Program-made: the position numbers and the translations under genes
Shown: piece by piece, positions 7,337 to 48,667 of the stretch
Layout of the letters: each line of letters begins with the position of its first letter
Position numbering within the stretch: the first letter of the stretch is position 1
Notes under the pieces: model-generated
The model's database searches: none
What the model saw: only the letters and a program-made list of their open reading frames with translations
Told to the model about the DNA's origin: nothing
NCBI GenBank assembly: GCA_030823955.1
Contig: JAVBYO010000006.1
Location: forward strand, 6,951 to 70,950
From: Gallionellaceae bacterium
GTDB taxonomy: Bacteria > Pseudomonadota > Gammaproteobacteria > Burkholderiales > Gallionellaceae
DNA: 64,000 nt
Reading direction: 5' to 3'

Positions 7337-7858
7337 ATGAAGCAATACAGCAAACGCACCGCCGTCACCCACTGGCTGATCTTCCTCTTGTTCATCGCCG
7401 CATTCTTTCTCGGCCACGAATTGGACGAAAGCAAAGACGCCGCCCAGAAACTGTCGATGTACCCCATCCATTTCCTGATCGGTGATGCCGTACTGCTGCT
7501 GACACTGCTGCGTATCTACTTCAGAAAGAAAGACGGTGAACCGGCTGCCGCGAACGCCAATCCGCTGCTCAACAAACTTGCAGCCGCGACCCATATGCTG
7601 ATGAACATCGCGGTCATCGCCGTGGTGATCTCCGGTGTCGCCACCGTGGCCACCTCGGGCGTGATCGAAGCACTGAAGCTGGCCGACCCGGCACTGATCC
7701 CGGATTTCCACAAGGTCGAAGCCAAAGAGTTCCATGAACTGTTCATCGGTGTGACGCTGCTGCTGGTGATGTTCCATGTGGCCGCCGCGCTGTACCACCA
7801 GTTCATCGTGAAGGACAACCTGCTGCGCCGTATCATGATCAAACGCTTCGAAGACTGA
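7337..7858 (+). CDS. Cytochrome b561 (CybB) family protein
   Basis: THWLIFLLFIAAF, four helices, and C-terminal HVAAALYHQFIVKDNLLRRI resemble E. coli CybB as recalled. ATG at 7337. Confidence 0.8.
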   Translation: MKQYSKRTAVTHWLIFLLFIAAFFLGHELDESKDAAQKLSMYPIHFLIGDAVLLLTLLRIYFRKKDGEPAAANANPLLNKLAAATHMLMNIAVIAVVISGVATVATSGVIEALKLADPALIPDFHKVEAKEFHELFIGVTLLLVMFHVAAALYHQFIVKDNLLRRIMIKRFED

Positions 7859-7874
7859 ACGTCTCGACATCGAT

Positions 7875-7908
7875 AAAAAAGAGGGCTTCGTATCGAAGCC
7901 CTCTTTTC
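7875..7908. terminator. Bidirectional rho-independent terminator between cytochrome b561 and dsbB
   Basis: gagggcttc (7881-7889) pairs with gaagccctc (7895-7903). An A-run precedes the stem and a T-run follows it. Confidence 0.75.
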
Positions 7909-7965
7909 ATTTGGGGAACCGCGCTACCGTAAGCGTCAGGTTTTACCAGCAGGTCGCAACAGATT

Positions 7966-8487
7966 TCAGGATAGACGCTCTTTGCGCAGCGCGATCCCCA
8001 GCGCGGCCACCCCGAGCAACACATACCAGAGCAACGACCACTGCGGGATACCCAGGGTGAGGAAGGTCCAGCCCTTGGCGGCACATTCGCCGGAGCCGTG
8101 CATCAATTCCTGCCAGACTTCGGCCATGGGGAAATTCTCCAGCATGTAATCCAGGCCGGGGCCGCAGGCGGGAACCTGGTCTTTGGGCAGATTCTGTATC
8201 CAGATATGGCGGCTCGCCACCGCCACCCCGCCCAGTGCGGCAAGTGCGATCAGGGACGAATAGATCCAGCGCCCAACACGTCCGGCATGATGTACTGCCG
8301 CGAGCAGAAACAACAGGCCGATACCGATGAAGATGAAACGCTGCACCATACACAGCGGGCAAGGCTCTTCGTGCAGGATATATTGCAGAGCCAGCGCCGC
8401 GCAGAACAATCCGGCGACAACTCCCGCCCCAGCCAGGTACAGCCAGCGCGCCGAGGTGTCTTGCCACAATCGCAGTATCTTGTTCAT
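7966..8487 (-). CDS. dsbB: Disulfide bond formation protein B
   Basis: EEPCPLCMVQR (CxxC in the first periplasmic loop) and four TM helices. ATG at 8487 is preceded by GGAGGAG. Confidence 0.85.
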   Translation of the reverse strand: MNKILRLWQDTSARWLYLAGAGVVAGLFCAALALQYILHEEPCPLCMVQRFIFIGIGLLFLLAAVHHAGRVGRWIYSSLIALAALGGVAVASRHIWIQNLPKDQVPACGPGLDYMLENFPMAEVWQELMHGSGECAAKGWTFLTLGIPQWSLLWYVLLGVAALGIALRKERLS

Positions 8488-8504
8488 CTCACTCCTCCAC
8501 CCGA

Positions 8505-8699
8505 TCAATCCGCTTCATCTATCCATGCGGACTGGATCGCTTCCAGTACCTTTTCGCCACCACGGTGATGATCGTCATCGAAACCGTCCAGATCAACCAC
8601 CAAGTTGTGCAGGTCGACAAAACGAATGGTCTTGGGGTCGATGTCGGTATGTTTCTCCGACAGCAGGATCGCGATCTCGCGCACATCGGTCCATTTCAT
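8505..8699 (-). CDS. iscX: Fe-S assembly protein IscX
   Basis: 64-aa acidic protein (MKWTDVREIAILL...DLHNLVV.LDGFDDD) in the last position of the isc operon. Confidence 0.85.
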   Translation of the reverse strand: MKWTDVREIAILLSEKHTDIDPKTIRFVDLHNLVVDLDGFDDDHHRGGEKVLEAIQSAWIDEAD

Positions 8700-8892
8700 A
8701 TGAGTGCTCCAGAAAATTGTTGCGAGCGATCCGAGAGCAAGGCGTACGGAACGCAGGAACCGGAATGTACAGTTAGTACATGAGGATTCCGAGTACCGCG
8801 CAACGCGGCTATCGGTTCGCGCAGTAAATTTAATGGGACACTCATTTTGAATGTCCTTCCAAAGTCATAATCCGCGTAGCGACCAACTGTAC

Positions 8893-8929
8893 CCCTCGCC
8901 CTAAGGGAGAGGGGGAACGGGGGTGAGGG
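8893..8929. repeat. Single arm of the GC-rich REP-like repeat family that also occurs inside mutS
   Basis: ccctcgccctaagggagaggg ggaacgggggtgaggg versus the mutS copy ccctcgccctctgggagaggg attgagggtgaggg. Confidence 0.7.
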
Positions 8930-8933
8930 AATA

Positions 8934-8981
8934 GAACATGGCGCAGACAATTCATTTTTTGTGTTGGCCTGCGCCATGTTC
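8934..8981. repeat. Perfect 13-bp inverted repeat enclosing the fdx stop codon
   Basis: gaacatggcgcag (8934-8946) and ctgcgccatgttc (8969-8981) flank a 22-nt loop that contains the fdx TGA (8952-8954). Confidence 0.8.
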
Positions 8982-9308
8982 TTTAGCCATATTGATGGTG
9001 TACTTGGGGATCTCGATGACAAGATCGGTATCACCCACCACGGCCTGACAGCTCAGGCGCGAGTTGCCTTCCAAGCCCCATGCTTTGTCCAGCATATCCT
9101 CTTCCAGTTCCGTCGCTTCTGCCAAGCTGCCGAATCCCTCGCGCACGATGACATGACAGGTGGTACAGGCACAGGATTTCTCGCAGGCATGCTCGATCTC
9201 GATCTCGTGCGCCAGCAGGGCATCGCAGATGGAGGTGCCGGGAGTCGCCTCGAACAGCGCCCCTCTGGGGCAAAGTTCCTCGTGCGGCAAAACGATGATC
9301 TGTGCCAT
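8952..9308 (-). CDS. fdx: ISC-type [2Fe-2S] ferredoxin
   Basis: MAQIIVLPHEELCP..., Cys ligands CEKSCACTTCH and SCQ. ATG at 9308 lies one base after the hscA stop codon. Confidence 0.9.
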   Translation of the reverse strand: MAQIIVLPHEELCPRGALFEATPGTSICDALLAHEIEIEHACEKSCACTTCHVIVREGFGSLAEATELEEDMLDKAWGLEGNSRLSCQAVVGDTDLVIEIPKYTINMAKEHGAGQHKK

Positions 9309-9309
9309 A

Positions 9310-11178
9310 TCAGTTGTCCAGTTCCGAGATCTTGTGTCCGGTGAGCGCATGGGACACGCTCTTGTCCATACGCCGCTGGGCGAAACCCACCGTCGCATCG
9401 TTCAACTGCCCGACGGCGCGCTTGATGACGAGATGATCGCCGTCCTGTAAGCGCGCGCGCAGTTCATCCATCGCGGCAGCGATGCCAGCGCGTTCGTCCG
9501 CACTGAGCAGACTCTGCCCGTCCTGCTCCAGCGCATTCACCACCGCCTCGAGCAACTGGCTGGCTTCGACCTGCTGCTCGCGCAACGCGCGGGCCTGCAT
9601 ATCGTCGCGGGCATGGCCGTGTGATTCCTGCAGCATGCGTGTGATCTCGGCGTCACTCAAGCCGTACGAAGGTTTGACCACGATGTGCGCTTCCACCCCG
9701 CAGCTCTGTTCGCGCGCGCTGACACTCAGCAGACCGTCGGCATCGATCTGGTAGGTGACACGGATACGTGCCGAGCCCGCCACCATGGGAGGGATACCGC
9801 GCAAGTCAAAACGTGCCAGCGAGCGGCAGTCACTCACCAGTTCGCGCTCGCCCTGCACCACATGCACACTCATCGCGGTCTGCCCGTCTTTGAAGGTGGT
9901 GAATTCCTGTGCGCGTGCGGTGGGGATGGTGCTGTTGCGCGGAATGATCTTTTCGGTGAGACCGCCCATGGTCTCGATACCCAGCGACAGGGGACACACG
10001 TCCAGCAGCAGCCAGTCGTCTTCACTGCGATTGCCCGCCAGCACGTTGGCCTGTATCGCAGCGCCCAGCGCCACGACTTTGTCCGGATCGAGATTGGTGA
10101 GCGGAACCTGTTTGAAGAAATCGGCCACGGCACGCTGCACCTGCGGCATACGCGTTGAACCGCCGACCATCACCACCCCTTTGATCTCGTCCACGCTCAG
10201 CCCGGCGTCGCGCAAAGCGCGGCGCATCGGCTGCAGGGTGCGCGCCACTAGGTTCTGCGTCATGGCGTGAAAGTCTTCCTGCGTGACAGCGGTGTCTATC
10301 ATCTCGCCGCTGCCCAGCACGGCGGTGATGCGGGTCTCCACGCGGTCGGTGAGCTCTTCTTTGGCCGCGCGCGCGCGCGTCAGCAATGCGCGCGTATCAT
10401 GTGCGCCGAGCGCCGAGAGGCGGTTCTTTTCCAGCAGCCAGCAATAGAGGCGATGGTCGAAATCGTCCCCGCCCAGTGCCGAATCGCCGTTGGTGGCGAG
10501 CACTTCGAACACGCCTTTGGCAAGTTTCAGGATGGAGATGTCGAAAGTGCCGCCGCCCAGATCGTAGACCGCGTAGATGCCTTCGGAAGCGTTGTCCAGA
10601 CCGTAGGCGATGGCCGCCGCAGTCGGCTCATTGAGCAGCCGCAGGACATTGAGCCCGGCCAGACGTGCCGCATCCTTGGTGGCCTGGCGTTGTGCATCGT
10701 CGAAATAGGCCGGCACCGTGATGACCGCACCGACCAGTTCACCACCCAAGCTCTGCTCGGCGCGGTCACGCAGCACCTTCAATATCTCGGCGGATACTTC
10801 CACCGGACTCTTCACGCCGGCGATCGTGCGCAGTTGCAACATGCCGGGCGAGTCGACGAAACGGTAAGGCAGATTGGCAACATCGCCCACATCATTCAGA
10901 CCGCGCCCCATGAATCGTTTCACGGAGACGATGGTGTTGACCGGGTCTTCGCTCTGCACCGCCTGCGCGGCATCACCCACTTGCACGGCACCATCGGCCA
11001 GATAACGGACCACGGAAGGCAGCAACGCGCGTCCGTGTTCGTCGTTCAACACCAGACTGATGCCGTTGCGCACCGTGGCGACGAGAGAGTTGGTCGTCCC
11101 CAGGTCGATACCTATCGCCAGCCTGTGCTGGTGCGGAGCGGCGCTGAGGCCGGGTTCGGAGATCTGTAGCAATGCCAT
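9310..11178 (-). CDS. hscA: Fe-S cluster assembly chaperone HscA (Hsp70 family)
   Basis: [18 protein letters not shown] and VGGSTRMP Hsp70 motifs, with isc operon context. Confidence 0.95.
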
Positions 11179-38097: not shown

Positions 38098-40770
38098 ATG
38101 ACAAAGACACACAGCAAAACTCTCGCGCATGACGCGACCAGCGAGAAGCAGACCCCAATGATGCAGCAATATCTGCGCATCAAGGCGGAACACAGCGACA
38201 AACTGCTGTTCTATCGCATGGGCGACTTCTATGAACTGTTCATGGACGATGCAGTGCGCGTCGCCAAGCTGCTCGACATCACCCTCACTCAGCGTGGCGC
38301 CTCCAACGGCCAGCCCATCAAGATGGCGGGAGTGCCCTATCACGCGGCGGAACAATACCTCGCACGACTGGTGAAGATGGGTGAATCGGTCGCCATCTGC
38401 GAGCAGATCGGCGACCCCGCCACCAGCAAAGGCCCGGTCGAACGCAAAGTCATGCGCATCGTCACCCCCGGCACCGTCACCGATTCCGCCCTGCTGGAAG
38501 AGAAACACGACAATCTGCTGCTCGCCCTGCACCGGCGCAACAACGAAGTCGGCCTCGCCTGGCTCAACCTCGCCTCCGGCCAGTTCACCCTCGCCGAAGT
38601 CGCTGCCAAACAACTGCCCGCCGAACTGGAACGCTTGCAACCATCCGAGATACTGTTCGCTGAAAGCACGACTGCGCCGCAGTTCAAGAACGCCGCCAAC
38701 AAATCCCTGCCCGACTGGCACTTTGACCGTGACACCGCGCATCGTGCGCTGTGCCAGCAGTTCGGCACGCGCGACCTCGCCGGATTCGGCTGCGACGAGT
38801 TCACTCTCGGCCTCGAAGCTGCCGGGGCTTTGCTCGGCTACGCCAAGCTGACGCAGGGCCAGAGCATCGCCCACATCCGCAGCGCACAGGTGTACCACGC
38901 CGACGAATTCGTACGCATGGATGCCGCCACCCGCCGCAACCTGGAGATCACCCAGACCCTGCGCGGCGAACCCGCGCCGACATTACTCTCGCTACTCGAC
39001 ACCTGCGCCAGCAACATGGGTAGTCGTCTGTTAGCGCATTGGCTGCATCATCCGCTGCGGGATCGCGCTGCATTGGGCGCAAGACTGGAAGCCGTCGAAC
39101 AACTGCTGTCACCTCCCTCGCCCTCTGGGAGAGGGATTGAGGGTGAGGGAACACATGTTGAGGTACGCACAGAGCGTCCCCTCACCCCAGCCCTCTCCCA
39201 GAGGGCGAGGGAGCTTTACCCCCAAGTCCACGACCACCTAAAACCCAGCGTAGACGTGGAACGCATCACCGCCCGCATCGCGCTGCGCAGTGCAAGGCCG
39301 CGCGACCTTTCCGGCCTGCGCGACACACTTAAACAACTGCCCGCATTACATAAGCTGCTGGCCGATGTGAGCGCGCCGCGCATCAGGCGACTCACCGCAC
39401 AACTGCAAGCCGACGCCGCGCTAGTCGAACTGCTGCAAAAGACGCTGAAGGAAGAACCCTCCTCCGTGCTACGCGAAGGCGGCGTCATCGCCGACGGTTT
39501 CGATTTCGAACTGGATGAGTTGCGCGGCATCCAGACCAACTGCGGCGATTTTCTGCTGGAACTGGAGATCCGTGAACGCGCACGCACCGGCATCGACAAA
39601 CTCAAGGTCGAATACAACCGCGTACACGGCTTCTACATCGAGGTGAGTTTTGCCAATGCCGACAAGGTGCCCGCCGACTACCGCCGCCGCCAGACGCTGA
39701 AAAACGTCGAGCGTTACATCACACCGGAACTCAAAGCGTTCGAAGACAAAGCACTCTCCGCCAACGACCGCGCACTGGCGCGTGAGAAGTTGCTTTACGA
39801 CCAGTTACTGGATGCACTCGCACCGTTCATTCCGCAATTGCAAGACATCGCCGCCGCCATCGCCGAACTGGACGTACTTGCCACCTTCGCCGAACGCGCG
39901 ACCACGCTCAACTTCAGCGCGCCGCGTTTCAGCAACGATGCGCAGCTCGTCATCAAGCAAGGCCGTCATCCGGTTGTGCAAGCGCAAGTGGAACAGTTCA
40001 CCCCCAACGACGCCACGCTCAACGACGCGCGCCGCATGTTGCTCATCACCGGCCCCAACATGGGCGGTAAATCGACCTACATGCGCCAGGTTGCCATCAT
40101 CGCGCTGCTCGCGCATGTCGGCTGCTTCGTGCCTGCACAGGAAGCGGTGCTGGGCGAGATCGACCAGATCTTTACCCGCATCGGCGCATCGGATGACTTG
40201 GCCAGCGGACGCTCCACCTTCATGGTCGAGATGACCGAGGCCGCCAACATTCTGCACAACGCCACCGATAAGAGCCTAGTGCTGGTGGACGAGATCGGGC
40301 GCGGCACCAGCACCTTCGACGGGCTCGCCCTCGCCTACGCCATCGCGCGCCACCTGCTGGACATCAACCGCAGCTATACATTATTTGCCACGCACTATTT
40401 CGAACTCACGCGCTTGGCCGAAGAATTCAAACAACTCGCCAACGTCCACCTCGCCGCCGTCGAGCACCAGCACACCATCGTCTTCCTGCACAGCGTCAAC
40501 GAAGGCGCCGCCAGCCAGAGCTACGGCCTGCAAGTCGCCGCCCTCGCGGGTGTGCCGAACAGCGTCATCCGCAACGCGAAAAAACAATTAGTGAAGCTGG
40601 AACAGAACAGCGCCGCGCAAAATCCGCAGGGCGACCTGTTCGCTGCCGTGCCGGAAACGCCGCAGCCGGAAGAACATCCGCTACTGTCGGCGCTACGCGA
40701 TCTGCAGCCGGATGAGATGAGTCCGAAGGAAGCACTGGAGAGGATTTATCAATTAAAGAAGCTGGCGTAG
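38098..40770 (+). CDS. mutS: DNA mismatch repair protein MutS
   Basis: [18 protein letters not shown], Walker [19 protein letters not shown]. 890 aa, including an in-frame repeat-derived insertion. Confidence 0.95.
39115..39211. repeat. 97-bp palindromic REP/MITE-like element inserted in frame within mutS
   Basis: Arms ccctcgccctctgggagagggattgagggtgaggg (39115-39149) and ccctcaccccagccctctcccagagggcgaggg (39179-39211). The first 21 nt are perfectly complementary. It translates as [35 protein letters not shown]. Confidence 0.85.
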
Positions 40771-40785
40771 GAAGGATATCTGGCC

Positions 40786-42087
40786 GTGGAAGAATTTAAA
40801 GCACATGAAGTGAGAAACTGCTTTCTAATTCTCTCAAAAGCCAAAAGCCCTTCTGATTCGGTTCTTGCCTGGACTGTTTTGCAGAAGCAGTATCCACACT
40901 TAAGTGCTATGGTGTCATTAGAAGAATATCCCAAGGAAGCCGTCCCATACTCGATAAAAAAATATACAAAAAAGCCAGATAAATATTTGGTTCCCTATTT
41001 CTCGTCTTCAAATATCTATTTCCTCGGTGACTCATTATTGACCGACATGTTTTCTGTGGATGAAGCGAAGATCAAAGTGGACTACTCTTTAATGTTCGAC
41101 ACGAATCTTGCAAGTTATATAAACAAACTCGCAAGAGGAGAGCCGCTCGGTAATATTCAGAATCAAGTAGTTTCTCTGATTGATAGCATCCTGCAGGACA
41201 ACCTGAATTTCGATCATCTGTTTTACATGGTAGAGAACGCAAAAAATGTTCCCCTCTTAGATTCAAACCACCACTCCAAAATCTCTTTTTGGCGCGCTCT
41301 AAACAAAGACTTTAGGCGAAACATGGTGAGTCTTCAGGTATTCAGTAGCATTGATTGCCAAGAATATAAACGAACGTCATTCCCAAAACCTCAAGCCAAC
41401 TACAAAGAAGCTGCGCGAAGGGCTATCAATTTCTGCTATGACTTCTATGCATCAGAAATCGGGAAGGACCATATTTCCGAATTTTTTCTTCTGCAACGTC
41501 TCTTATTGCTTCAGCTATTAGGTATGTTGAGAATTCAGCTCTCAACAAACAAAAGTGTGAAAAACAAGATGAAAGATTATTTCGCCTTTATCCACGAGGA
41601 GGTTGGCGCCTATTTTGATAGAGAGTCAATGATCGCACATAAATATTTCAGCGACAGAAACGAGATAGAAGTTCTCGAGAAAATTAAAAAGGGAATGTGC
41701 ACAACTCGTTTGCTAAAGAAATTAGACAACATAGCTTGGGACATGGCTGCGCCCCGATTCATGGAAAAGCTAATGAGCACAGGGGGGCAAGGAGATTATT
41801 TCGTGCCATTCTTTCTCACATTTGATAAGGGCCTACGTGATCTACTATCAGCCTATCGTGTAAAAGGTGTGATTATCAACAAAGGCAAGGGGCAACTAAT
41901 TCCAATTCCAGAAGTATCTACCTATGAATATTTTGTAAATCAAGGCTTCAAAGATGAGATCGAATATTTTTTTAGCGACCGCGTAAAAAACGAACGTCTC
42001 ACTCGTCCTAAGCCAAACAGAACTAGCATTCATGAAAAAATCCGTAACGAATATGCCGCGCTAAAGAGGGCATTAACGAACCAATAA
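40786..42087 (+). CDS. Hypothetical 433-aa protein, strongly AT-rich, no family recognised
   Basis: Long uninterrupted ORF in AT-rich DNA, where random stop codons are frequent. GTG start has GGAAGGA 9 nt upstream. One hand-counted line at 40801-40860 has 21/60 G+C, versus 44/60 in mutS line 40501-40560. Confidence 0.6.
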   Translation: MEEFKAHEVRNCFLILSKAKSPSDSVLAWTVLQKQYPHLSAMVSLEEYPKEAVPYSIKKYTKKPDKYLVPYFSSSNIYFLGDSLLTDMFSVDEAKIKVDYSLMFDTNLASYINKLARGEPLGNIQNQVVSLIDSILQDNLNFDHLFYMVENAKNVPLLDSNHHSKISFWRALNKDFRRNMVSLQVFSSIDCQEYKRTSFPKPQANYKEAARRAINFCYDFYASEIGKDHISEFFLLQRLLLLQLLGMLRIQLSTNKSVKNKMKDYFAFIHEEVGAYFDRESMIAHKYFSDRNEIEVLEKIKKGMCTTRLLKKLDNIAWDMAAPRFMEKLMSTGGQGDYFVPFFLTFDKGLRDLLSAYRVKGVIINKGKGQLIPIPEVSTYEYFVNQGFKDEIEYFFSDRVKNERLTRPKPNRTSIHEKIRNEYAALKRALTNQ

Positions 42088-42088
42088 G

Positions 42089-42113
42089 AACTAAAGGAGT
42101 CAGCTTCGCATTT
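42089..42113. repeat. Island boundary repeat copy R1
   Basis: aACTAAAGGAGTCAGCTTCGCATTT begins 2 nt after the stop codon of the 433-aa ORF. Confidence 0.7.
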
Positions 42114-42163
42114 CAGCCCCTGTGACAGGTACAACAATCAGGGCAATAACTAGAACGCCGATT

Positions 42164-42919
42164 TCACGCCACCTTATGAAACTTTAATAAATCACGCATG
42201 AGATATCTAATTTCCAAATTCATTTCTGGAAATATTTTTCCCCACAAAAAACCAATTAACGATTGAGTCAGCATCACGAAACCAAAAAGAAGCGCGACAT
42301 AAAACAATAAAAAAAATGTAAGTAATGGCGTCAAACCTTCGTAGAAGGCAAATACATTAGCAATACCTGCCCCCTCCTTACTCGAAAGCACAATAATCGA
42401 AGAAAACAACATGATTAAAAGCGCATTAATTCTCGGCTTAGAGTCCGGATTGTAAATATACAGATGCAGCTGAGAAAGTGTCCTGCTCAGGGGTGGCCTC
42501 AACATTTCTTGCAGCTCCAGTACCTTATTAATATCTTGAGCAAGCGAGAGATATTCGTTCTCTGCTTTCCCAATATTTACGCGCAAGAATTGTCGTTTAC
42601 ACATGTCAATATCTAAGAATCTATTCTGACAATACATGTTGGAATATTGTCTATTAAATTTCTTCAAAATCGTTTTCCTCCTATCTTCCTTTGCTTTTTC
42701 AAGAGCGAAAAGTCCCACTAGCTCTAACACCATAAGAGGCCAGATTAAATTTCTTTTCGCTTCAATATCATTAAAGGCAAATATCGAAAAAAATGTATAT
42801 AGGCCAACAACAAAGAACGCTAACCAAGCGAGAAGAGACACCCACGTCGGCATATTTCGCCAATCGTTCTTTTCAAATTCAACGTAATAGTCTTTTGCCT
42901 GTCTTGAAATATTTTCCAT
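42164..42919 (-). CDS. Hypothetical 251-aa membrane protein, AT-rich, no family recognised
   Basis: ATG start. Two N-terminal and about three C-terminal hydrophobic helices flank a charged central segment. Long ORF in AT-rich DNA. Confidence 0.6.
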   Translation of the reverse strand: MENISRQAKDYYVEFEKNDWRNMPTWVSLLAWLAFFVVGLYTFFSIFAFNDIEAKRNLIWPLMVLELVGLFALEKAKEDRRKTILKKFNRQYSNMYCQNRFLDIDMCKRQFLRVNIGKAENEYLSLAQDINKVLELQEMLRPPLSRTLSQLHLYIYNPDSKPRINALLIMLFSSIIVLSSKEGAGIANVFAFYEGLTPLLTFFLLFYVALLFGFVMLTQSLIGFLWGKIFPEMNLEIRYLMRDLLKFHKVA

Positions 42920-42961
42920 AGATACACCCTTGCTTGTGCTGCGCCCTTAAGGATACCGTCG

Positions 42962-42985
42962 GCTATAAAGGTTAGCCTCGCGTTT
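42962..42985. repeat. Island boundary repeat copy R2
   Basis: GCTATAAAGGTTAGCCTCGCGTTT, 43 nt upstream of the 251-aa ORF ATG. Confidence 0.65.
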
Positions 42986-43003
42986 CTTCTAGCCACCTCT
43001 CAA

Positions 43004-43027
43004 GCTAAACGGGTCAGCCTCGCAATT
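43004..43027. repeat. Island boundary repeat copy R3
   Basis: GCTAAACGGGTCAGCCTCGCAATT. Confidence 0.7.
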
Positions 43028-43053
43028 ACCCCCAGCATCCAATCACGCACCAC

Positions 43054-43076
43054 GAGTAGCCTCTTGCCGCAAGTCA
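43054..43076. repeat. Degenerate repeat copy R4
   Basis: gagTAGCCTCttgcCGCAAgtc aligns with the GTCAGCCTCGCAATT core with an insertion. Confidence 0.35.
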
Positions 43077-43111
43077 TTGGAATAATCGGGGACAGACTAC
43101 GGTTTCTCGGA

Positions 43112-43135
43112 GCTAAAACGGGAATCCTGAAGATG
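43112..43135. repeat. Degenerate repeat copy R5
   Basis: GCTAAAACGGGAATCCTGAAGATG keeps the GCTAAA-CGGG half only. It overlaps the hairpin aaaacgg/ccgtttt, 33 nt from the kinase-like gene stop codon. Confidence 0.45.
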
Positions 43136-43167
43136 TCCGTTTTGTTTGATGCCGTATAGCGCGCCGC

Positions 43168-43869
43168 TCACTCCTTCTGCAACCTCGCCGCCATATCCGC
43201 TTTGCGCGCGACCATCTTCTCGGCCAGCGCGTGGCTGCCGCCGTGGTCTAGGATGACCTTGCGTATCTGCTCGTCCGGCATCTGCACCACTTTCATGATG
43301 GCCTGATCGATCTCGTCGCGCCGCATGCCGGCGAACAGTCTGGCTGCATGGAAGTTGCCTTCGTCGTTGCGCAACATGTCGAGTTCGTCCACGCGGGTGC
43401 CGAAGGCTTTGCCCTTGGGGTCGCCGTGTGCGCGGTAGGCCAATGCACCGCCCACGTCTAGCGTGAGCACTTGGCCGTTGGCGACACCCTGGTTGTCACC
43501 GTCGAAACCGGCAGCATCCCAGTTCGCAGTCCAGGCATGCACGCCCAGCCATTGTTGTGCCTGTTTGCGTTCGCCTGGGCTGAGGTGCGCGACACGTTTT
43601 TTATCCAGCACCACCCACTCGGTCGCGATCTGGTCTGGCGCTTGTGTGGGCACATAGCTCAGGGTCGGCGCGCCTGCCAGTTGGTAAAGCTTGGCGGCGA
43701 TCATTTCGTTGCGCGCATGGGCGGCGGATTCCAGCGTCTTTACGTAGTAGCGCCGCCCGCTGTCATCTTCAAAGATACCGGCAGGGTTGCTGCCCAGTTG
43801 CCCGCCGACGCGGTGCAGGGTGGTGGTGTCGATAGGTGCGATGTCCATCGTCATGCCCGGCTGATTCAT
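43168..43869 (-). CDS. Putative atypical (PI3/PI4-kinase-like or minimal protein-kinase-like) kinase, 233 aa
   Basis: Ordered kinase-like motifs: Gly-rich GGQLGSNPAG, YYVK, NEMIAAKLY, catalytic-loop-like NWDAAGFDGDNQGV, DFG-like LDVGGAL. ATG at 43869 overlaps the upstream stop codon (ATGA). The longer ORF to 44151 lies in the overlap frame of the phosphatase gene. Confidence 0.5.
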   Translation of the reverse strand: MNQPGMTMDIAPIDTTTLHRVGGQLGSNPAGIFEDDSGRRYYVKTLESAAHARNEMIAAKLYQLAGAPTLSYVPTQAPDQIATEWVVLDKKRVAHLSPGERKQAQQWLGVHAWTANWDAAGFDGDNQGVANGQVLTLDVGGALAYRAHGDPKGKAFGTRVDELDMLRNDEGNFHAARLFAGMRRDEIDQAIMKVVQMPDEQIRKVILDHGGSHALAEKMVARKADMAARLQKE

Positions 43870-44420
43870 GGCAGGGGCACGGTGCGGCGCACCAAGGCGA
43901 GTTGTGCGGGCGTTTCGATTGCGCCCTTGCGCACATGACGTACGGCATGGATCGCCGCTTCCGGCTCCATGCCCAGCTCGACGAGCAGCCGGGCGGCCAT
44001 CATGCCCGCCCGGCCCAGCCCGCCCTTGCAATGCACGAGCACATCTTCGCCGTTGCGCAGCATCTCGCGTATGGCGCGGCCTTGCGTCAGCCATTCTTCT
44101 TCGAATTTTTTGCCCGGCACTGAGAAGTCGGCAATGGGCAGGTGACACCACTTTATGCCGCGCTGGTGTATCTCATGCCCGAGCTGCGGCACTTTCAGGG
44201 CGATGAGTTCGGCAGGTTCCACCAGAGTCAGCACCAGCTTCGCGCCCCATGCGGCGATGGCATCCAGGTCGATGCCGAGGTCGCGCTCCCACGCGCCGGT
44301 GTGCGCGAAATGGTCATGCTTGCCCGGGCAGAAGGTGATGCCGATGCGCCCATGTGCTGGACTCGCACGGACTTCGGCGATCTGGAGCGGGTGAGTGTGG
44401 CTGGTTCGTACGGTTGCCAT
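43866..44420 (-). CDS. Cys-based protein phosphatase (dual-specificity/CDKN3-like fold)
   Basis: P-loop VHCKGGLGRAG (HCx5R) with an upstream general-acid-type LPIADFSVP. ATG at 44420; the ORF-track start at 44426 is a TTG. Confidence 0.8.
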   Translation of the reverse strand: MATVRTSHTHPLQIAEVRASPAHGRIGITFCPGKHDHFAHTGAWERDLGIDLDAIAAWGAKLVLTLVEPAELIALKVPQLGHEIHQRGIKWCHLPIADFSVPGKKFEEEWLTQGRAIREMLRNGEDVLVHCKGGLGRAGMMAARLLVELGMEPEAAIHAVRHVRKGAIETPAQLALVRRTVPLP

Positions 44421-44450
44421 CGTCAATCTCGGTGAATCGGTGAATACGTA

Positions 44451-44474
44451 GCTAACGGGATCAGCTTCGAATTT
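44451..44474. repeat. Island boundary repeat copy R6
   Basis: GCTAACGGGATCAGCTTCGAATTT. A partner segment aagct-cgcgtcagc (44487-44500) can pair with it, giving an attC-like bulged hairpin. Confidence 0.7.
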
Positions 44475-44477
44475 GCT

Positions 44478-44807
44478 TTACGTCCAAGCTCGCGTCAGCA
44501 GTTCATCCATCGCAGCAGTGATTCGGTCGCCCTCTTGTGCAAGCGTGGTGACCTTTTCGCCTAGCTGATCAATGGCGATAGATACCACCTCTAACGGGTG
44601 CAATACCACTTCGACACCCTCGACCACAAATACCGGATTCAGCGCCGCTCCAACCACTGCTGCGGCATTATCAAGGTTGCTACGGCGCACCAAAGGAATC
44701 ACGACTCGGCGGCGGTAACTGTCAAACAGGGAAGATTGAACGATGACAACATAGGGAATTGCTTCCCGCTGTTTTCCGATGTTCCGGTGAACGTCGAACT
44801 GTGCCAT
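44478..44807 (-). CDS. ccdB: Type II toxin CcdB (gyrase poison family)
   Basis: MAQFDVHRN....PYVVIVQSSLFD..RRRVVIPL is the canonical CcdB N-terminus. Confidence 0.85.
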   Translation of the reverse strand: MAQFDVHRNIGKQREAIPYVVIVQSSLFDSYRRRVVIPLVRRSNLDNAAAVVGAALNPVFVVEGVEVVLHPLEVVSIAIDQLGEKVTTLAQEGDRITAAMDELLTRAWT

Positions 44808-45010
44808 TACAGCGTGGAGTGTTGGTCTGCAAATGAGCCGGAGCGCTCGTTAAAGGCGTTCCAAGTTTGAGCTGCAACTTCCGCGCGGGTATGTGTTTTA
44901 TCTGTTGACGTCCGATTACGTGCAGAAAGAAATTCGACGAATTCAAAAACCTCCGCCTGCTTTTCGCGCGGCAACGCATCTAGTTTACTGATTAGTTCGG
45001 CGTAGCCCAT
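44807..45010 (-). CDS. ccdA: CcdA-type antitoxin with a DUF2281-like N-terminus
   Basis: The C-terminus ERSGSFADQHSTL resembles F-plasmid CcdA EMNGSFADENRDW (recalled). The N-terminus LDALPREKQAEVFEFVEFL is DUF2281-like. The stop codon overlaps the ccdB ATG (TAATG). Confidence 0.65.
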   Translation of the reverse strand: MGYAELISKLDALPREKQAEVFEFVEFLSARNRTSTDKTHTRAEVAAQTWNAFNERSGSFADQHSTL

Positions 45011-45137
45011 TACACACCCCGCTTGAGTTGAACGACGGGGGAAGTATAACCTGCGGAGGTAAGGCTTGCTATTGCCTTGCCCTCCGTCCCGCCCCTGTGT
45101 AAATTGCCGTATCTCCATCGATCACGGATTCGTAAAA

Positions 45138-45347
45138 ATGACTGCCGCTACCGTTTCCAGCAAATTCCAAATCTCCATTCCCAAAGAGGTGCGCGAGGCC
45201 ATGCACATCGAGCCGGGACAACAATATGAGTTCATTCCGATGGGGTCTATTATTCAACTCACGCCCAAGACTTCTATCAAGGAATTGCGCGGCATTGCGC
45301 TTGGGGCGAGTCCTGAAAAATATCGCGACCGCAAGGATCGCGCCTGA
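45138..45347 (+). CDS. AbrB/MazE/SpoVT-family antitoxin (VapB-like), orphan
   Basis: SSKFQISIPKEVREAMHIEPGQQYEF is the looped-hinge-helix signature. 69 aa. Confidence 0.75.
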   Translation: MTAATVSSKFQISIPKEVREAMHIEPGQQYEFIPMGSIIQLTPKTSIKELRGIALGASPEKYRDRKDRA

Positions 45348-45370
45348 TGTTTCTGGAGAGCAATAGGTGA
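45347..45370 (+). pseudogene. 7-codon remnant of the cognate PIN/VapC-type toxin
   Basis: The ATG overlaps the antitoxin TGA (TGATG), the usual vapBC junction. It reads MFLESNR-stop, compared with the common VapC start M-h-L-L-D-T-N. Confidence 0.3.
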
Positions 45371-45417
45371 CGTACCACGGCTTCCAATCAACCCGTTATC
45401 GCCATTCATCCGAGCAA

Positions 45418-45440
45418 CTAATAGGGGCACCTTCGCACTT
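45418..45440. repeat. Island boundary repeat copy R7
   Basis: CTAATAGGGGCACCTTCGCACTT, 13 nt from the DUF3301 stop codon. Confidence 0.55.
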
Positions 45441-45452
45441 CCTTACGCGCCC

Positions 45453-45770
45453 TCACTCCAATATCTGATACGGCTCCAGCGTGACCGATTCGACACGCTC
45501 ACCGAGCATGATGATCCCCCCTTCTCTTCGGCTATTGCCCGTTTCGGTGAATTCAAAGCGATAGGTGCGGCGCAGTACGCGGCGGCCGGATGAATCACGA
45601 TCAAGTGCGAGGCTGGTACTAGCGACGGTGTCATCGAGAAATTGCAGCTCTGCTCTGCGGCAGGTTTGTCTGCCCGCATCGCGTGCGATCTCCAGGATGC
45701 GGATGCTGTGCAGCCAGAACCATCCCAAGGCGATGATGGCTAGCAGTGCGAGTAAGCTCAAGATGTCCAT
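45453..45770 (-). CDS. DUF3301 family protein
   Basis: N-terminal TM helix, then W.W...R..E.A......C....LQFLDDTV......L.R...G...L.R.Y.FEF, as I recall for DUF3301. Confidence 0.7.
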   Translation of the reverse strand: MDILSLLALLAIIALGWFWLHSIRILEIARDAGRQTCRRAELQFLDDTVASTSLALDRDSSGRRVLRRTYRFEFTETGNSRREGGIIMLGERVESVTLEPYQILE

Positions 45771-45778
45771 TTTGGTTT

Positions 45779-45810
45779 GCTATCTAACGGGGACTGGATT
45801 CTAACTTGCC
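45779..45810. repeat. Degenerate repeat copy R8
   Basis: GCTATCTAACGGGGACTGGATTCTAAC. On the minus strand it contains GTTAGAT and GTTAGAA core-like motifs. Confidence 0.35.
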
Positions 45811-45940
45811 GTTGAACTACAAGCTTGTTTCGCAAGCTATTGGGATCGGATCCACAATTAGTTTCACCTCCCGCTTAATACCTCTACTGCCAGTACCCAT
45901 TTTTATTGCCCAACCATAAGCGTAGGATATTCAGCACGGT

Positions 45941-45960
45941 GGGCGGCACATCTGCCGCCC
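45941..45960 (+). terminator. Terminator-like hairpin inside the leader of the 76-aa ORF
   Basis: gggcggca-catc-tgccgccc (8-bp GC stem) followed by gttctgttcttt. Confidence 0.3.
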
Positions 45961-45993
45961 GTTCTGTTCTTTAATCATTTTAAGGAGGCGATC

Positions 45994-46224
45994 ATGAAAA
46001 CAGCCGATATGATGATTTATGTGCATCCCGATCTGGATGCGACAAAGAGGATGGATATGGAAAGAAGTCTGGCCGGGCGCATCGGTGTGGATTGTGCGGA
46101 GTTTGAACATCGTCCGCATCCGCATGCGCTGATGGTGAAATACGATCCGGACTCGATCAAGGGTATGGATATCCTGCAGATGGTACGCAAGCTCGATCCT
46201 GCCGCTTCGATGGTGGGCATGTGA
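45994..46224 (+). CDS. Hypothetical 76-aa protein
   Basis: Strong AAGGAGG 6 nt upstream of the ATG. No family recognised. Confidence 0.6.
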   Translation: MKTADMMIYVHPDLDATKRMDMERSLAGRIGVDCAEFEHRPHPHALMVKYDPDSIKGMDILQMVRKLDPAASMVGM

Positions 46225-46226
46225 CA

Positions 46227-46250
46227 GCTAAAGGAGCCAGCTTCGCATCG
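46227..46250. repeat. Island boundary repeat copy R9
   Basis: GCTAAAGGAGCCAGCTTCGCATCG begins 3 nt after the 76-aa ORF stop codon. It pairs with gcgatgtaagttgacc (46265-46280). Confidence 0.7.
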
Positions 46251-46309
46251 CCCTCACTCCCCCAGCGATGTAAGTTGACCGTCCAACCATTTCATTTCAA
46301 TTGAACACC

Positions 46310-47797
46310 ATGCCCACCCAAGACCCCAGCACCGGCCTGCGTCTAGATAACCAGTTCGCCCGCGAGGTGCAAGGCATGTATGTGCGCTGGCAACCCGAGC
46401 CAGCACCTGCACCGCGCTGGCTGCAATTCAACGATGCACTGGCTCAGGAACTGGGGCTGGAGGCACAGGCATTGCGTGGTGATGCGGGGCTGGCGGTGTT
46501 TTCCGGTCAGCGCGTACCCGATGGCGCAGAGCCAGTGGCGCAGGCTTATGCCGGTCACCAATTCGGGTATTTCTCGCCGCGTCTGGGGGATGGCCGCGCC
46601 TTGTTGCTGGGCGAGATCGTCGATCCCTCTGGGCAGCGTTTCGATCTTGCGCTGAAGGGTTCCGGCCCCACGCCTTTTGCGCGTAACGGTGACGGCAAAG
46701 CGGCGGTCGGGCCGGTGCTGCGTGAGTTCATTGTCGCCGAAGCGATGCATGCGCTGGGTGTGCCGACGACGCGGGTGCTGGCGGCAGTGGCTACCGGCGA
46801 GTCGGTGCGACGTGAAAGAGCCTTGCCCGGCGCGGTGCTCGCGCGCGTAGCTGCCAGCCATCTGCGCGTGGGCAGTTTCGAATATGCGGCACGTACCAAA
46901 GATGCCGCGTTGCTGGGCCGCCTTGCCGAGCATGCCATCGCGCGCCACGCGCCGCATTTGCAAGGCCAGCGGCAGCGCCATCTGGGTTTGCTGGAGCAGG
47001 TGGTGGAGCGTCAGGCAAGTTTGATCGCGCAGTGGATGGGGCTGGGTTTCATCCACGGTGTGATGAACACCGACAATATGACCATCTCCGGCCAGACCAT
47101 AGACTACGGGCCGTGCGCGTTCATGGAGCATTTCGATCCCGAGGAGGTGTTCAGTTCGATCGACCACGATGGGCGCTATGCTTGGGCCAACCAGTCTGCC
47201 ATCGCACACTGGAACCTTTCCCGTCTGGCCGAGACGCTGTTGCCGCTGCTCGACGATGATGCGGAGCGCGCGGGCGCACTGGCGATGGCAACCATCGGGA
47301 AATTCGATACGCATCTGTCGGAACACTGGTCTGCGTTGCTGCGCAGCAAGGTCGGGCTGCCGGACGGTGCGGATGCGGCAGATCGCCTCGCCACCGAATT
47401 TCTACATCTAATGCAACGCCACGAAGTGGACTACACGCTGGGCTGGCGTCGGCTGGGCGATGCAGCCGCCGGAGACGAAGCGCCGCTGCGCGCAGTGTTC
47501 GGCGCGCATGCTGCCGCGCTGGATGATTGGCTTGCACGCTGGCGCGCGCTGTTCGGCACCGTGCCGGGCGTCGAGCGCGCACGTGCGATGGCCGAGGTGA
47601 ACCCTATGGTCATTCCGCGCAACCATCTAGTCGAGCTGGCGCTGGAGGCAGCCACCGACTACGACGACCTTGGCCCGTTCGAGCGGCTACTGGCCGAAGT
47701 GCGCCGACCGTTCGAGTCGCGCGATGACGCTAACCCTTACATCCAGCCCGCGACGCGCGAAGAGACTGCCAACTACCATACTTTCTGCGGAACCTGA
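46310..47797 (+). CDS. selO: Protein adenylyltransferase SelO (YdiU/UPF0061)
   Basis: [35 protein letters not shown] motifs. I prefer the ATG at 46310 to the TTG at 46301. Confidence 0.9.
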
Positions 47798-47881
47798 TGG
47801 CGGCGAGCAAGCAAAGGGGGCAAACCCGCCCGATCCGCATTATCATTACCATCCGCTTCGCCCATCCCAACGGAGGTTCAC

Positions 47882-48667
47882 ATGAAAAGATTGCTGCTCT
47901 CCCTCGCCCTGCTCCTAGTTTCCGCTACTTCCCTCGCCGCAGTGGAAGGTGAAGAGGTGAGTTATTCCGCGAACGGCACTACGCTGAAAGGCTGGCTCGC
48001 TTACGACGGTCTGGCGATGGGCAAGCGCCCTGCCGTGCTGGTGGTGCATGAATGGTGGGGGCACAACGCTTATGCGCGCAAACGCGCCAACATGCTGGCC
48101 AAGCTAGGATATGTGGCGTTGGCGGTGGATATGTACGGTGACGGAAAACAGGCGAACCATCCGGGGGATGCGGGCAAGTTCGCCGCTGAAGTCTCCAAGA
48201 ACAAACCGCTGACGAAGGTGCGTTTCGAGGCGGCGATGAAGTTGCTGCGCGACGATGCGCGCGTGGATGGCACGAAGCTGGCGGCCATCGGTTATTGTTT
48301 CGGCGGCGGTGTGGTGCTGAACATGGCACGCGAGGGAGAGGACTTACGTGGTGTAGCGAGTTTCCACGGCGGTCTGACGACCGATATGCCCGCACAGAAG
48401 GGCCAGGTGAAAGCACAGGTGCGTGTGTTCACCGGCGCGGATGACAAGATGATCCCCGCCGCGCAGGTGAGTGCGTTCAAGCAGGAGATGGAAAAAGCCG
48501 GTGTGAATTACCAGGTAGTGGTCTATCCCGGCGCGATGCATGCTTTCACTAACCCGGATGCGGATGAGTTAGGCAAGAAGTTCAATATGCCCGTCGCCTA
48601 CAATGCGGCGGCAGACAAGGATTCGTGGGCGCAATTACAGGTCTTTCTGGCTGATGTGTTGAAATGA
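47882..48667 (+). CDS. Secreted dienelactone hydrolase family protein
   Basis: Signal peptide, VVHEWWG, and nucleophile elbow GYCFGG. Confidence 0.85.
   Translation: MKRLLLSLALLLVSATSLAAVEGEEVSYSANGTTLKGWLAYDGLAMGKRPAVLVVHEWWGHNAYARKRANMLAKLGYVALAVDMYGDGKQANHPGDAGKFAAEVSKNKPLTKVRFEAAMKLLRDDARVDGTKLAAIGYCFGGGVVLNMAREGEDLRGVASFHGGLTTDMPAQKGQVKAQVRVFTGADDKMIPAAQVSAFKQEMEKAGVNYQVVVYPGAMHAFTNPDADELGKKFNMPVAYNAAADKDSWAQLQVFLADVLK

Follow-up and report, generated by a model that had tools for sequence, protein, structure and literature searches.

Probable REP/REPIN-type repeats, rather than attC sites, head the gene blocks of a hypervariable island beside mutS in a Gallionellaceae bacterium

What are the short direct repeats that punctuate a run of small accessory genes downstream of mutS in a Gallionellaceae bacterium? 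The stretch considered here comprises 64,000 nucleotides of contig JAVBYO010000006.1 (assembly GCA_030823955.1, positions 6,951 to 70,950; hereafter the window), and nine small genes lie in it between the mutS stop codon (40770) and the selO ATG (46311). A preliminary description had taken this island for an integron-like gene-cassette array with attC-like boundary repeats, i.e. a cluster of attC sites lacking integron-integrases (CALIN) or the distal end of a larger integron. We find that the repeats are not attC sites, that the array is not an integron and that integron machinery is probably not involved. Instead, they are likely to be solo and half copies of a repetitive extragenic palindrome (REP) family of the kind that also forms paired REP doublets (REPINs), whose partner is a REP-associated tyrosine transposase (RAYT)-like, IS200-related HUH/Y1 transposase. 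Most likely, the locus is a hypervariable island, rich in toxin-antitoxin genes, whose rearrangements are joined at REP edges.

A direct-repeat search of the window aligned five copies in register, which we scored with a weight matrix built solely from copies in other genomes. The copy termed R1 (AACTAAAGGAGTCAGCTTCGCAT, 42089..42111), located between convergent genes, has a single mismatch to the family consensus 23-mer, AACTAAAGGGGTCAGCTTCGCAT, and scores 37.0 bits. R3 (AGCTAAACGGGTCAGCCTCGCAA, 43003..43025; 30.7 bits) and R6 (AGCTAACGGGATCAGCTTCGAAT, 44450..44472; 29.0 bits), the latter at the left edge of a block containing ccdB, have four mismatches each. The copy AACTAATAGGGGCACCTTCGCAC at 45416..45438 (five mismatches; 21.8 bits) is separated by 14 nt from the stop codon of the DUF3301 gene, whose block it delimits on the left, and R9 (AGCTAAAGGAGCCAGCTTCGCAT, 46226..46248; three mismatches; 33.5 bits) marks the junction of a 76-aa open reading frame (ORF) and selO. 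The best score in 100 shuffles was 19.5 bits, and scores of 22–37 bits under a matrix derived from other genomes place the window copies in a betaproteobacterial repeat family. Three lesser sites complete the set: a weak copy, GGCTATAAAGGTTAGCCTCGCGT, at 42961..42983 (11.2 bits, borderline with respect to shuffles), a 5′ half-copy found by motif scan, AGCTAAAACGGG, at 43111..43122, which is the left edge of the block termed unit 3, and a degenerate 5′ half read from the sequence at 45781..45805 (CTAACGGGG...). Of the nine copies announced by the preliminary description, eight sites can be placed, five of them solid, one weak and two partial; the direct-repeat family itself was located correctly, as were its distances to neighbouring stop and start codons, within 1–3 nt.

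All of these copies are on the plus strand and inside the island. A mismatch scan found none elsewhere in the 64 kb (0.15 matches on shuffled windows), and all six occurrences of the 5′-half motif in the window are on the plus strand and within the island. The island accounts for about 19% of the intergenic bases of the window, yet holds five of the five strong copies (P about 2e-4). Each copy heads the left (5′) end of a gene block, and the cassette-like layout is genuine even though the repeats are not those of an integron. In the 59 nt between the last copy and selO (46249-46307), the repeat core has an inverted match, GCGATGTAAGTTGACC, that is weak and degenerate (fold z = -1.07, not significant).

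Where else does this 23-mer occur? When 185,579 species genomes were scanned once with the pattern ARCTAAANGRRNCAGCYTCGCAW, 48 loci came up, nearly all in Betaproteobacteria, with about ten expected by chance from composition arithmetic. Hosts are Gallionellaceae, Sideroxydans, Ferrigenium, Nitrotoga, Propionivibrio, Dechloromonas, Sulfuritalea, Thiobacillus and Hydrogenophilales, and the nearest named relatives of the window are Sideroxydans and Gallionellaceae metagenome-assembled genomes (MAGs). By crude gene calls, 55 of the 73 good copies are intergenic, flanked by convergent (29), tandem (17) or divergent (4) genes. The neighbours are mostly housekeeping genes (encoding PurL, MetK, GpsA, porins and GGDEF/EAL proteins), with a few defence or toxin-antitoxin genes (HipA, Mrr, BrnA). 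The preliminary description had itself envisaged that the repeat might be scattered as a generic REP, and this is the picture obtained: copies beside unrelated housekeeping genes in many genera. Inverted doublets account for 17 of the 73 copies (at most 4 mismatches in a 15-nt core), their spacers measuring about 5–127 nt and most commonly 9, 21 or 45 nt; the rest are singlets. A full-text literature search for the repeat core matched only unrelated primers. The 23-mer is an undescribed repeat family common to iron-oxidising Gallionellaceae, Nitrotoga, Rhodocyclales and others.

Two further features of the family deserve mention. The 5′ part of the repeat (AACTAAAG..., 9–14 nt) is often present in two to four tandem copies ahead of a full copy, as at loci L016, L021, L023, L025, L037, L043, L049 (6693-6745) and L157 (1414-1450), which suggests that this end slips or is repeatedly cut and joined. 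Elsewhere, two to four direct copies form tight clusters at distances of 28–60 nt (L049, 7590-7745; L005, 7573-7637), unlike the alternating arrangement of classical bacterial interspersed mosaic elements (BIMEs). Two copies in L005 follow the DUF2461 gene, a position at which the window (about 51120) has none, but the flanks were too diverged for this comparison with an empty site to define an inserted unit.

Which gene, if any, travels with the repeat? At six loci, a copy is situated about 16 nt upstream of an ORF starting MPRRPRI.LAG.PQH. The corresponding gene of 242–243 codons is bracketed by inverted copies in L013, L026 and L043, and adjoins a copy in L018, L027 and L012; in L027 and L043 it is truncated or frameshifted. 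Its product matches the Pfam family Y1_Tnp above cut-off (E 8e-15), while a sequence search of the PDB with this RAYT-like protein gave no match. Homologs about 75% identical are encoded in Gallionella, Sideroxyarcus and other Nitrosomonadales. In Gallionella (L130-L134), a copy (AACTAAAGGGGTCAGCATCACAA) precedes the ATG by 16 nt and an inverted copy follows the stop codon at 28 nt, and the gene keeps the same neighbours in five separately assembled Gallionella contigs; the Sideroxyarcus locus (L135) has the upstream copy only. RAYT genes are known to be flanked by inverted REPs (Nunvar 2010, PMC2817692). Because the repeat is dispersed, forms inverted doublets and, in Rhodocyclales and Gallionella, flanks a RAYT-like Y1 gene with inverted copies, we assign it to the REP/REPIN type; these are the hallmarks by which Nunvar et al. 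define a REP/REPIN-RAYT system. The RAYT-like partner is found in Gallionellaceae, Rhodocyclales and other Betaproteobacteria.

How does the island behave among related genomes? Relatives were gathered via the mutS C-terminus, the repeat scan and 90%-identity clusters of DUF3301 and CcdB. Homology with every one of them ends at 40764-40774, where mutS stops, and the DNA beyond this point differs. The interval between mutS and DUF3301 holds other toxin-antitoxin modules in these relatives (DUF4258/MqsA, ParE/MazE, PemK); its content varies across those compared, in agreement with the earlier view of a mutS-adjacent hotspot. In L048, L051, L053 and L054, only one to three other genes separate mutS from DLH, DUF2461, AhpC and JmjC, the backbone genes located at 47.9–54 kb of the window. 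Nor is selO a fixed neighbour: it is not downstream of mutS in close relatives fetched via mutS, and in L155 the order is 76-aa ORF, DLH, selO, repeat, compared with 76-aa ORF, repeat, selO, DLH in the window. When L155 (reverse complement, 7559-9957) is set against window positions 46225-48667, selO and DLH appear swapped, the repeat directly following the selO stop codon there.

Several breakpoints between such rearranged blocks fall at or near the 5′ edge of repeat copies. L154 is 95.8% identical to the window over 44450-45051, with homology starting exactly at the first base of the 44450 copy. In this relative, the copy is joined straight to the interior of the 233-aa gene (43395), such that 43396-44449 are missing and only the last third of the gene is retained. 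The half-copy at 43111 is conserved in L154 as AGCAAAAACGGG, again as a left block edge, with a breakpoint at 43105. L155 is 95.5% identical over 45424-46224, a block that starts 8 nt inside the 45416 copy and ends 2 nt before the 46226 copy; L046 has a breakpoint at 45419. Homology with L155, L046, L050, L149 and L151 ends at 46217-46225, just 5′ of the 46226 copy, and homology blocks with L046 and L149-L153 end 10–24 nt past the degenerate copy at 45781. The DUF3301-linked copy occurs in six contexts whose left-hand DNA is unrelated (the window, L046 twice, L049, L058 and L007), just its 3′ half surviving in L058 and L007, and the ccdB-linked copy in three contexts with unrelated left flanks, L050 and L048 keeping it together with ccdB or a ccdB fragment. 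The repeat hence marks the boundaries of units that are present, absent or re-ordered in relatives, as the preliminary description had proposed.

An ancestral-sequence relic at 43079..43112 (plus strand) adds a further junction. It holds a 17-mer, GGACAGACTACGGTTTC (43090-43106), which occurs once in the window and directly abuts the DUF3301 stop codon in the repeat-free relatives L149-L153; accordingly, 43111-45452 can be read as inserted DNA, with a half-copy at its start and a full copy at its end. Across eight lineages, about 20 copies downstream of mutS share one orientation relative to that gene. In L046, which derives from a Sideroxydans MAG, two blocks of repeat plus DUF3301 (1485-1883 and 4525-4887) bracket a 2.1-kb insert and the 76-aa ORF.

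Relatives also display duplicates of the mutS end. In L149-L153 (e.g. reverse complement of L149, 7231-7870), a DUF4258/MqsA module follows the end of mutS and is itself followed by a 41-nt duplicate of the 3′ end of that gene, which corresponds to window 40724-40764 at 90% identity, and in L048 a 68-nt mutS fragment (2587-2654) follows a mazE-like gene. These duplicates look as though DNA had inserted into the 3′ end of mutS or recombined there. Within the window island, no duplicate of the mutS 3′ end was found.

How might repeats come to head gene blocks? In vitro, TnpAREP cuts single-stranded DNA 5′ or 3′ of a REP, and a foreign 3′-OH can resolve the resulting phosphotyrosine link, so that new DNA is joined to the cleaved, REP-bearing end (Corneloup 2021, PMC8266576). 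This end-joining geometry is the one seen in L154. A Y1/HUH enzyme acting on single-stranded DNA probably spreads the family in a strand-specific manner, which would explain the uniform orientation of the copies. The 5′ edge of a copy would probably be a preferred site of breakage and rejoining, either through cleavage by the enzyme and strand transfer to another 3′-OH or through recombination between copies, and deletions, insertions and re-orderings in the region would tend to begin at a repeat. As to whether repeat edges are indeed preferred joints, we consider the chances roughly even. A more far-reaching version, namely a RAYT-type HUH/Y1 gene-shuffling system that cuts one strand at the 5′ edge of a copy and transfers it to a foreign 3′-OH, strikes us as improbable; arbitrary DNA would thereby join a unit of repeat plus downstream genes, yielding integron-like, co-oriented, repeat-headed modules, which beside mutS would consist of toxin-antitoxin and accessory genes.

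Several observations weigh against assigning the repeats to a REP/REPIN-RAYT system or against a part of their edges in rearrangements. The 23-mer lacks an internal palindrome and a GTAG head, both classical REP traits; its only self-complementary stretch is the tetranucleotide AGCT. The window holds no inverted doublet, every copy being a singlet without the hairpin presumably required by a Y1 enzyme, which may therefore be unable to act on them. Apparent copy number is low, with at most five exact pattern matches per assembly, and the roughly 58 kb of the window outside the island contain no copy. No RAYT/Y1 gene was found in the 64-kb window, and the RAYT-like protein of other genomes, although its best NCBIfam model is REP_Tyr_transpos, scores 68.6 bits against a cut-off of 80 (IS200: 20.4 bits). 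Repeat orientation, examined in 8-kb loci, agreed with local GC skew in 28 of 44 cases, a trend that is not significant (p = 0.13). Finally, modules turn over in the same manner in L149-L153, which have no repeat, indicating that repeats are not required for variability, and the junctions at the mutS end, the selO start and the DLH start carry no repeat.

The last two points also speak for an alternative that we regard as possible, albeit less than probable: the copies may be passive passengers, that is, ordinary REP-type repeats that drifted into tolerant intergenic DNA near gene 3′ ends and have no part in the rearrangements. Their position at block edges would follow from blocks being gene-sized and repeats standing a few bases off stop codons. 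In line with this view, turnover is equal in the repeat-free relatives and extends to a toxin-antitoxin insertion with a duplicate of the mutS 3′ end at its flank, no repeat is present at several junctions, and the family is generally biased to convergent gene ends. Passive drift, however, fits poorly with the precision of the breakpoints, which in alignments of 95–96% identity coincide with the first base of the 44450 copy, with 45424 (8 nt inside a copy) and with 46224 (2 nt before one), and not with positions elsewhere in the spacer. It likewise sits uneasily with the six different left flanks of the DUF3301-linked copy, with a junction in L154 that fuses a gene interior to a repeat edge, and with the recurrent tandem duplication of the 5′ half.

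Could the repeats instead be solo terminal inverted repeats or MITE (miniature inverted-repeat transposable element) remnants of a conventional insertion sequence (IS), composed of the Y1 gene and 23-bp inverted ends, with the window copies as scars of excision or decay? The gene is bracketed in IS-like fashion by inverted 23-mers, doublets with conserved inner sequence resemble MITEs, and L027 and L043 have damaged copies of the gene. Against this, the shared gene neighbours in five Gallionella contigs point to one fixed locus rather than many insertions, the best model for the protein is RAYT and not IS200 (68.6 vs 20.4 bits), and target-site duplications were not seen at the window copies. 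To our knowledge, Y1 enzymes such as those of IS200/IS605 do not use terminal inverted repeats in the way DDE transposases do, a further strike against this explanation. Altogether, we deem it unlikely, and return to REP/REPIN-type copies as the better description of the repeats.

What, then, remains of the integron? On this account, the island would be a CALIN with degenerate attC sites whose units had been inserted by IntI. Its units are short and heterogeneous in G+C and include toxin-antitoxin genes, true integron cassettes belonging to the family of the 433-aa ORF occur in Vibrio, in a Nitrosomonas-like MAG and in Hylemonella, and the copy at 44450 begins with AGCTAAC, resembling an R″ box. 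The last likeness is partial and one-sided: the four nucleotides outside AAC are not conserved among 60 copies, and no complementary RYYYAAC partner accompanies the copies, which leaves the proposed similarity to the core site GTTRRRY without its counterpart. No window copy has an inverted partner within 150 nt. Single-strand DNA folds around each copy, on both strands, are no better than those of shuffled sequences (z -1.07 to +1.31), a result that extends to the bulged hairpins previously suggested at R6 and R9.

Three hand-written structural scans for attC detected no pair in the island, but their sensitivity was low, as they also missed real attC sites in L140. We therefore built a covariance model and discounted these scans in favour of it, given its positive controls. 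This home-made model, used in place of the published IntegronFinder model, was trained on eight genuine attC sites, of which a Nitrosomonas-like cassette array supplied five; Hylemonella, aadA1 of R100 and a Pseudomonas class 1 integron contributed one each. It scored its own training members at 39.8–58.7 bits, an unseen site in the array that had supplied five of them at 21.7 bits, and five shorter (59–61 nt) sites of a Vibrio cassette array at 12.6–18.4 bits. Over the whole window with filters off, the best match reached 10.4 bits (E 3.2), which does not rise above noise, and no match fell on any repeat copy. The preliminary description had seen no integrase, and rightly so: a tblastn search with an IntI1 query (337/337 identical to R100 IntI1) yielded no homolog in the 64-kb window, nor in the 48 repeat-bearing loci of other genomes. 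Moreover, the orientation of the repeat relative to adjacent genes is mixed, and it is RAYT genes that the repeat brackets and housekeeping genes that it adjoins. The CALIN reading is thus already largely refuted, and we assign it a very small residual probability.

Equally remote is the idea that some other site-specific recombinase uses the copies, as in Xer/dif-like modules or small integrative elements, or that they bind proteins or serve as terminators: modules are bounded by direct repeats, and a mutS 3′-end duplicate flanks the toxin-antitoxin insert in relatives as integrative elements would produce, but the 11-6-11 dyad that characterises dif sites is missing from the 23-mer, the IntI1 query detects no tyrosine recombinase in the window or the loci, neither hairpin nor T-run suggests a terminator, and the window has no GC-skew switch. 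A local minimum of cumulative skew had led us to consider a replication origin, terminus or dif at this position; skew over the whole window shows no switch, and this candidate was ruled out.

Which genes make up the island? Its conserved left anchor is mutS (38098..40770, plus strand; 890-aa ORF). Unit 1 consists of the 433-aa ORF (40786..42087, plus strand) and unit 2 of a 251-aa ORF (42164..42919, minus strand), both low in G+C and functionally unassigned. The G+C content at 40.8–43.0 kb is 36–41% in 400-nt windows as compared to about 60% in the flanks, which confirms the compositional heterogeneity noted earlier. The 433-aa ORF matches neither Pfam nor PADLOC. For the 251-aa ORF, no Pfam family exceeds the curated cut-off (Cytochrom_C_asm stays sub-threshold at 22.8 vs 29.9 bits), and only three relatives exist among 5.8 billion proteins. 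One of them, 75% identical (L156), is encoded two genes from GmrSD_N (type IV restriction) with no repeat nearby, a neighbourhood hinting at a defence context. PADLOC returned no match on the island ORFs, the 251-aa ORF, the 233-aa ORF and the phosphatase described below included, and an Rfam scan of the window at gathering thresholds was likewise empty.

Unit 3 (43168..44426, minus strand) pairs the 233-aa ORF (43168-43869), which is called as a gene also in L136, with a 186-aa dual-specificity phosphatase (43866-44426; Pfam Tc-R-P E 7e-13, PTP-SAK E 2.5e-11) in a two-gene operon whose ATGA overlap can be read from the sequence. The phosphatase is of the ‘polymorphic toxin / Swiss-army-knife’ type of dual-specificity and protein tyrosine phosphatases (DSP-PTPase), and its 233-aa partner belongs to no detectable family. 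Unit 4a (44478..45013, minus strand) encodes a CcdB-family toxin (44478-44807; Pfam CcdB E 6e-26) and a 68-aa DUF2281-type antitoxin (44807-45013; Pfam DUF2281 E 5e-5). The partner of the toxin is therefore this protein and not CcdA; a TAATG stop/start overlap is visible, and the antitoxin was left uncalled by the gene caller applied to L001. Unit 4b is an orphan MazE/AbrB-like antitoxin gene (45141..45347, plus strand; Pfam MazE_antitoxin E 8e-8), which corresponds to a 69-aa gene in L001.

Next come the DUF3301 gene (45453..45770, minus strand; Pfam E 4e-32), a semi-conserved backbone gene of which most relatives have one, and the functionally unassigned 76-aa ORF (45994..46224, plus strand), which is without a Pfam match and shares 63–75% identity with its counterparts in L046, L050 and L056. 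On the far side, selO (46311..47797, plus strand; Pfam SelO E 3e-108) is a movable block rather than a fixed right anchor. Taken together, gene content and relatives support the portrayal of this region as an accessory, compositionally mixed and toxin-antitoxin-bearing island at a polymorphic spot beside mutS.

The 433-aa ORF provides a genuine tie to integrons. Its homologs, at 45–62% identity, are scattered over Beta- and Gammaproteobacteria, and among L137-L142, L143-L144 and L145 the family resides in cassette arrays with canonical attC sites in a Nitrosomonas-like MAG (sites such as AGCTAAC...GTTAGGT) and in Vibrio alginolyticus. In Hylemonella, the homolog is a single cassette with attC. 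No attC was found at the ORF in the window, and in L157 a 77%-identical homolog directly follows mutS, the repeat copy after it having its 5′ half duplicated. The gene pool of the island overlaps that of integrons; the local architecture does not.

What does this mean beyond a single locus? For annotation, it illustrates that short direct repeats arrayed between small accessory genes can look like an integron cassette array. In the present case, the gene association of the repeat itself, RAYT rather than IntI, settles the question. The role of REP/RAYT systems for their hosts is still debated, and the locus together with its metagenome relatives offers natural junctions at or near one repeat edge, making the recombination-joint idea directly testable. 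If HUH-based gene shuffling held true, REP/RAYT systems would gain a concrete role in genome plasticity. REP/RAYT systems as a kind are already known, and the present family adds unusual traits in a mutS-adjacent hypervariable island.

How does the locus compare to known systems? With REP/REPIN-RAYT systems (PMC2817692; Bertels & Rainey 2011, PMC3116915; PMC8266576), it shares a short extragenic repeat that prefers gene 3′ ends, inverted doublets in addition to singlets, a RAYT-like Y1 gene between two inverted copies (in related genomes) and, in Gallionella, the location of this gene at the same locus in five contigs. It departs from them in a 23-mer devoid of palindrome and GTAG head, mostly present as singlets and at low apparent copy number, in the occurrence of nearly the same 23-mer across several orders of Betaproteobacteria and a few Gammaproteobacteria, in the co-orientation of neighbouring copies where BIMEs alternate, and in a protein that scores below the NCBIfam RAYT cut-off. 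Integron cassettes and CALINs resemble the island in that short units, unrelated and of mixed composition, form an array in which a single direct-repeat copy delimits each of them, in the presence of toxin-antitoxin genes, and in that the family of one unit is a bona fide cassette elsewhere. Their boundaries, in contrast, are imperfect palindromes of 55–140 nt (R″-L″...L′-R′) rather than a 23-nt repeat; neither R″/R′ boxes nor an attC model match nor an integrase was found in the window, the repeat is entirely part of just one of the two blocks that it separates, and its orientation relative to genes is mixed.

The ‘peel and paste’ elements of the IS200/IS605 group employ a related Y1 HUH enzyme and likewise make joints at one defined edge of a recognised sequence, and strand-specific behaviour of this sort would explain uniform orientation; the units of the window, however, lack a transposase and subterminal hairpins, and no conserved tetranucleotide target is present to the left of the copies. 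Xer/dif (pdif) modules differ in that their 28-bp dyad of two 11-bp arms and a 6-bp spacer is missing from the consensus, which is not accompanied by a skew switch. REP sequences have reportedly served as join points of rearrangements and as targets of insertion sequences (Shyamala et al. 1990; Tobes & Pareja 2006), and the mutS-rpoS region of enterobacteria is polymorphic. Those precedents concern another repeat family and another host clade, and the present hotspot is variable without the repeat, too. What they have in common with the island described here are repeats at the ends of duplications and deletions and a mutS-adjacent interval that varies from strain to strain.

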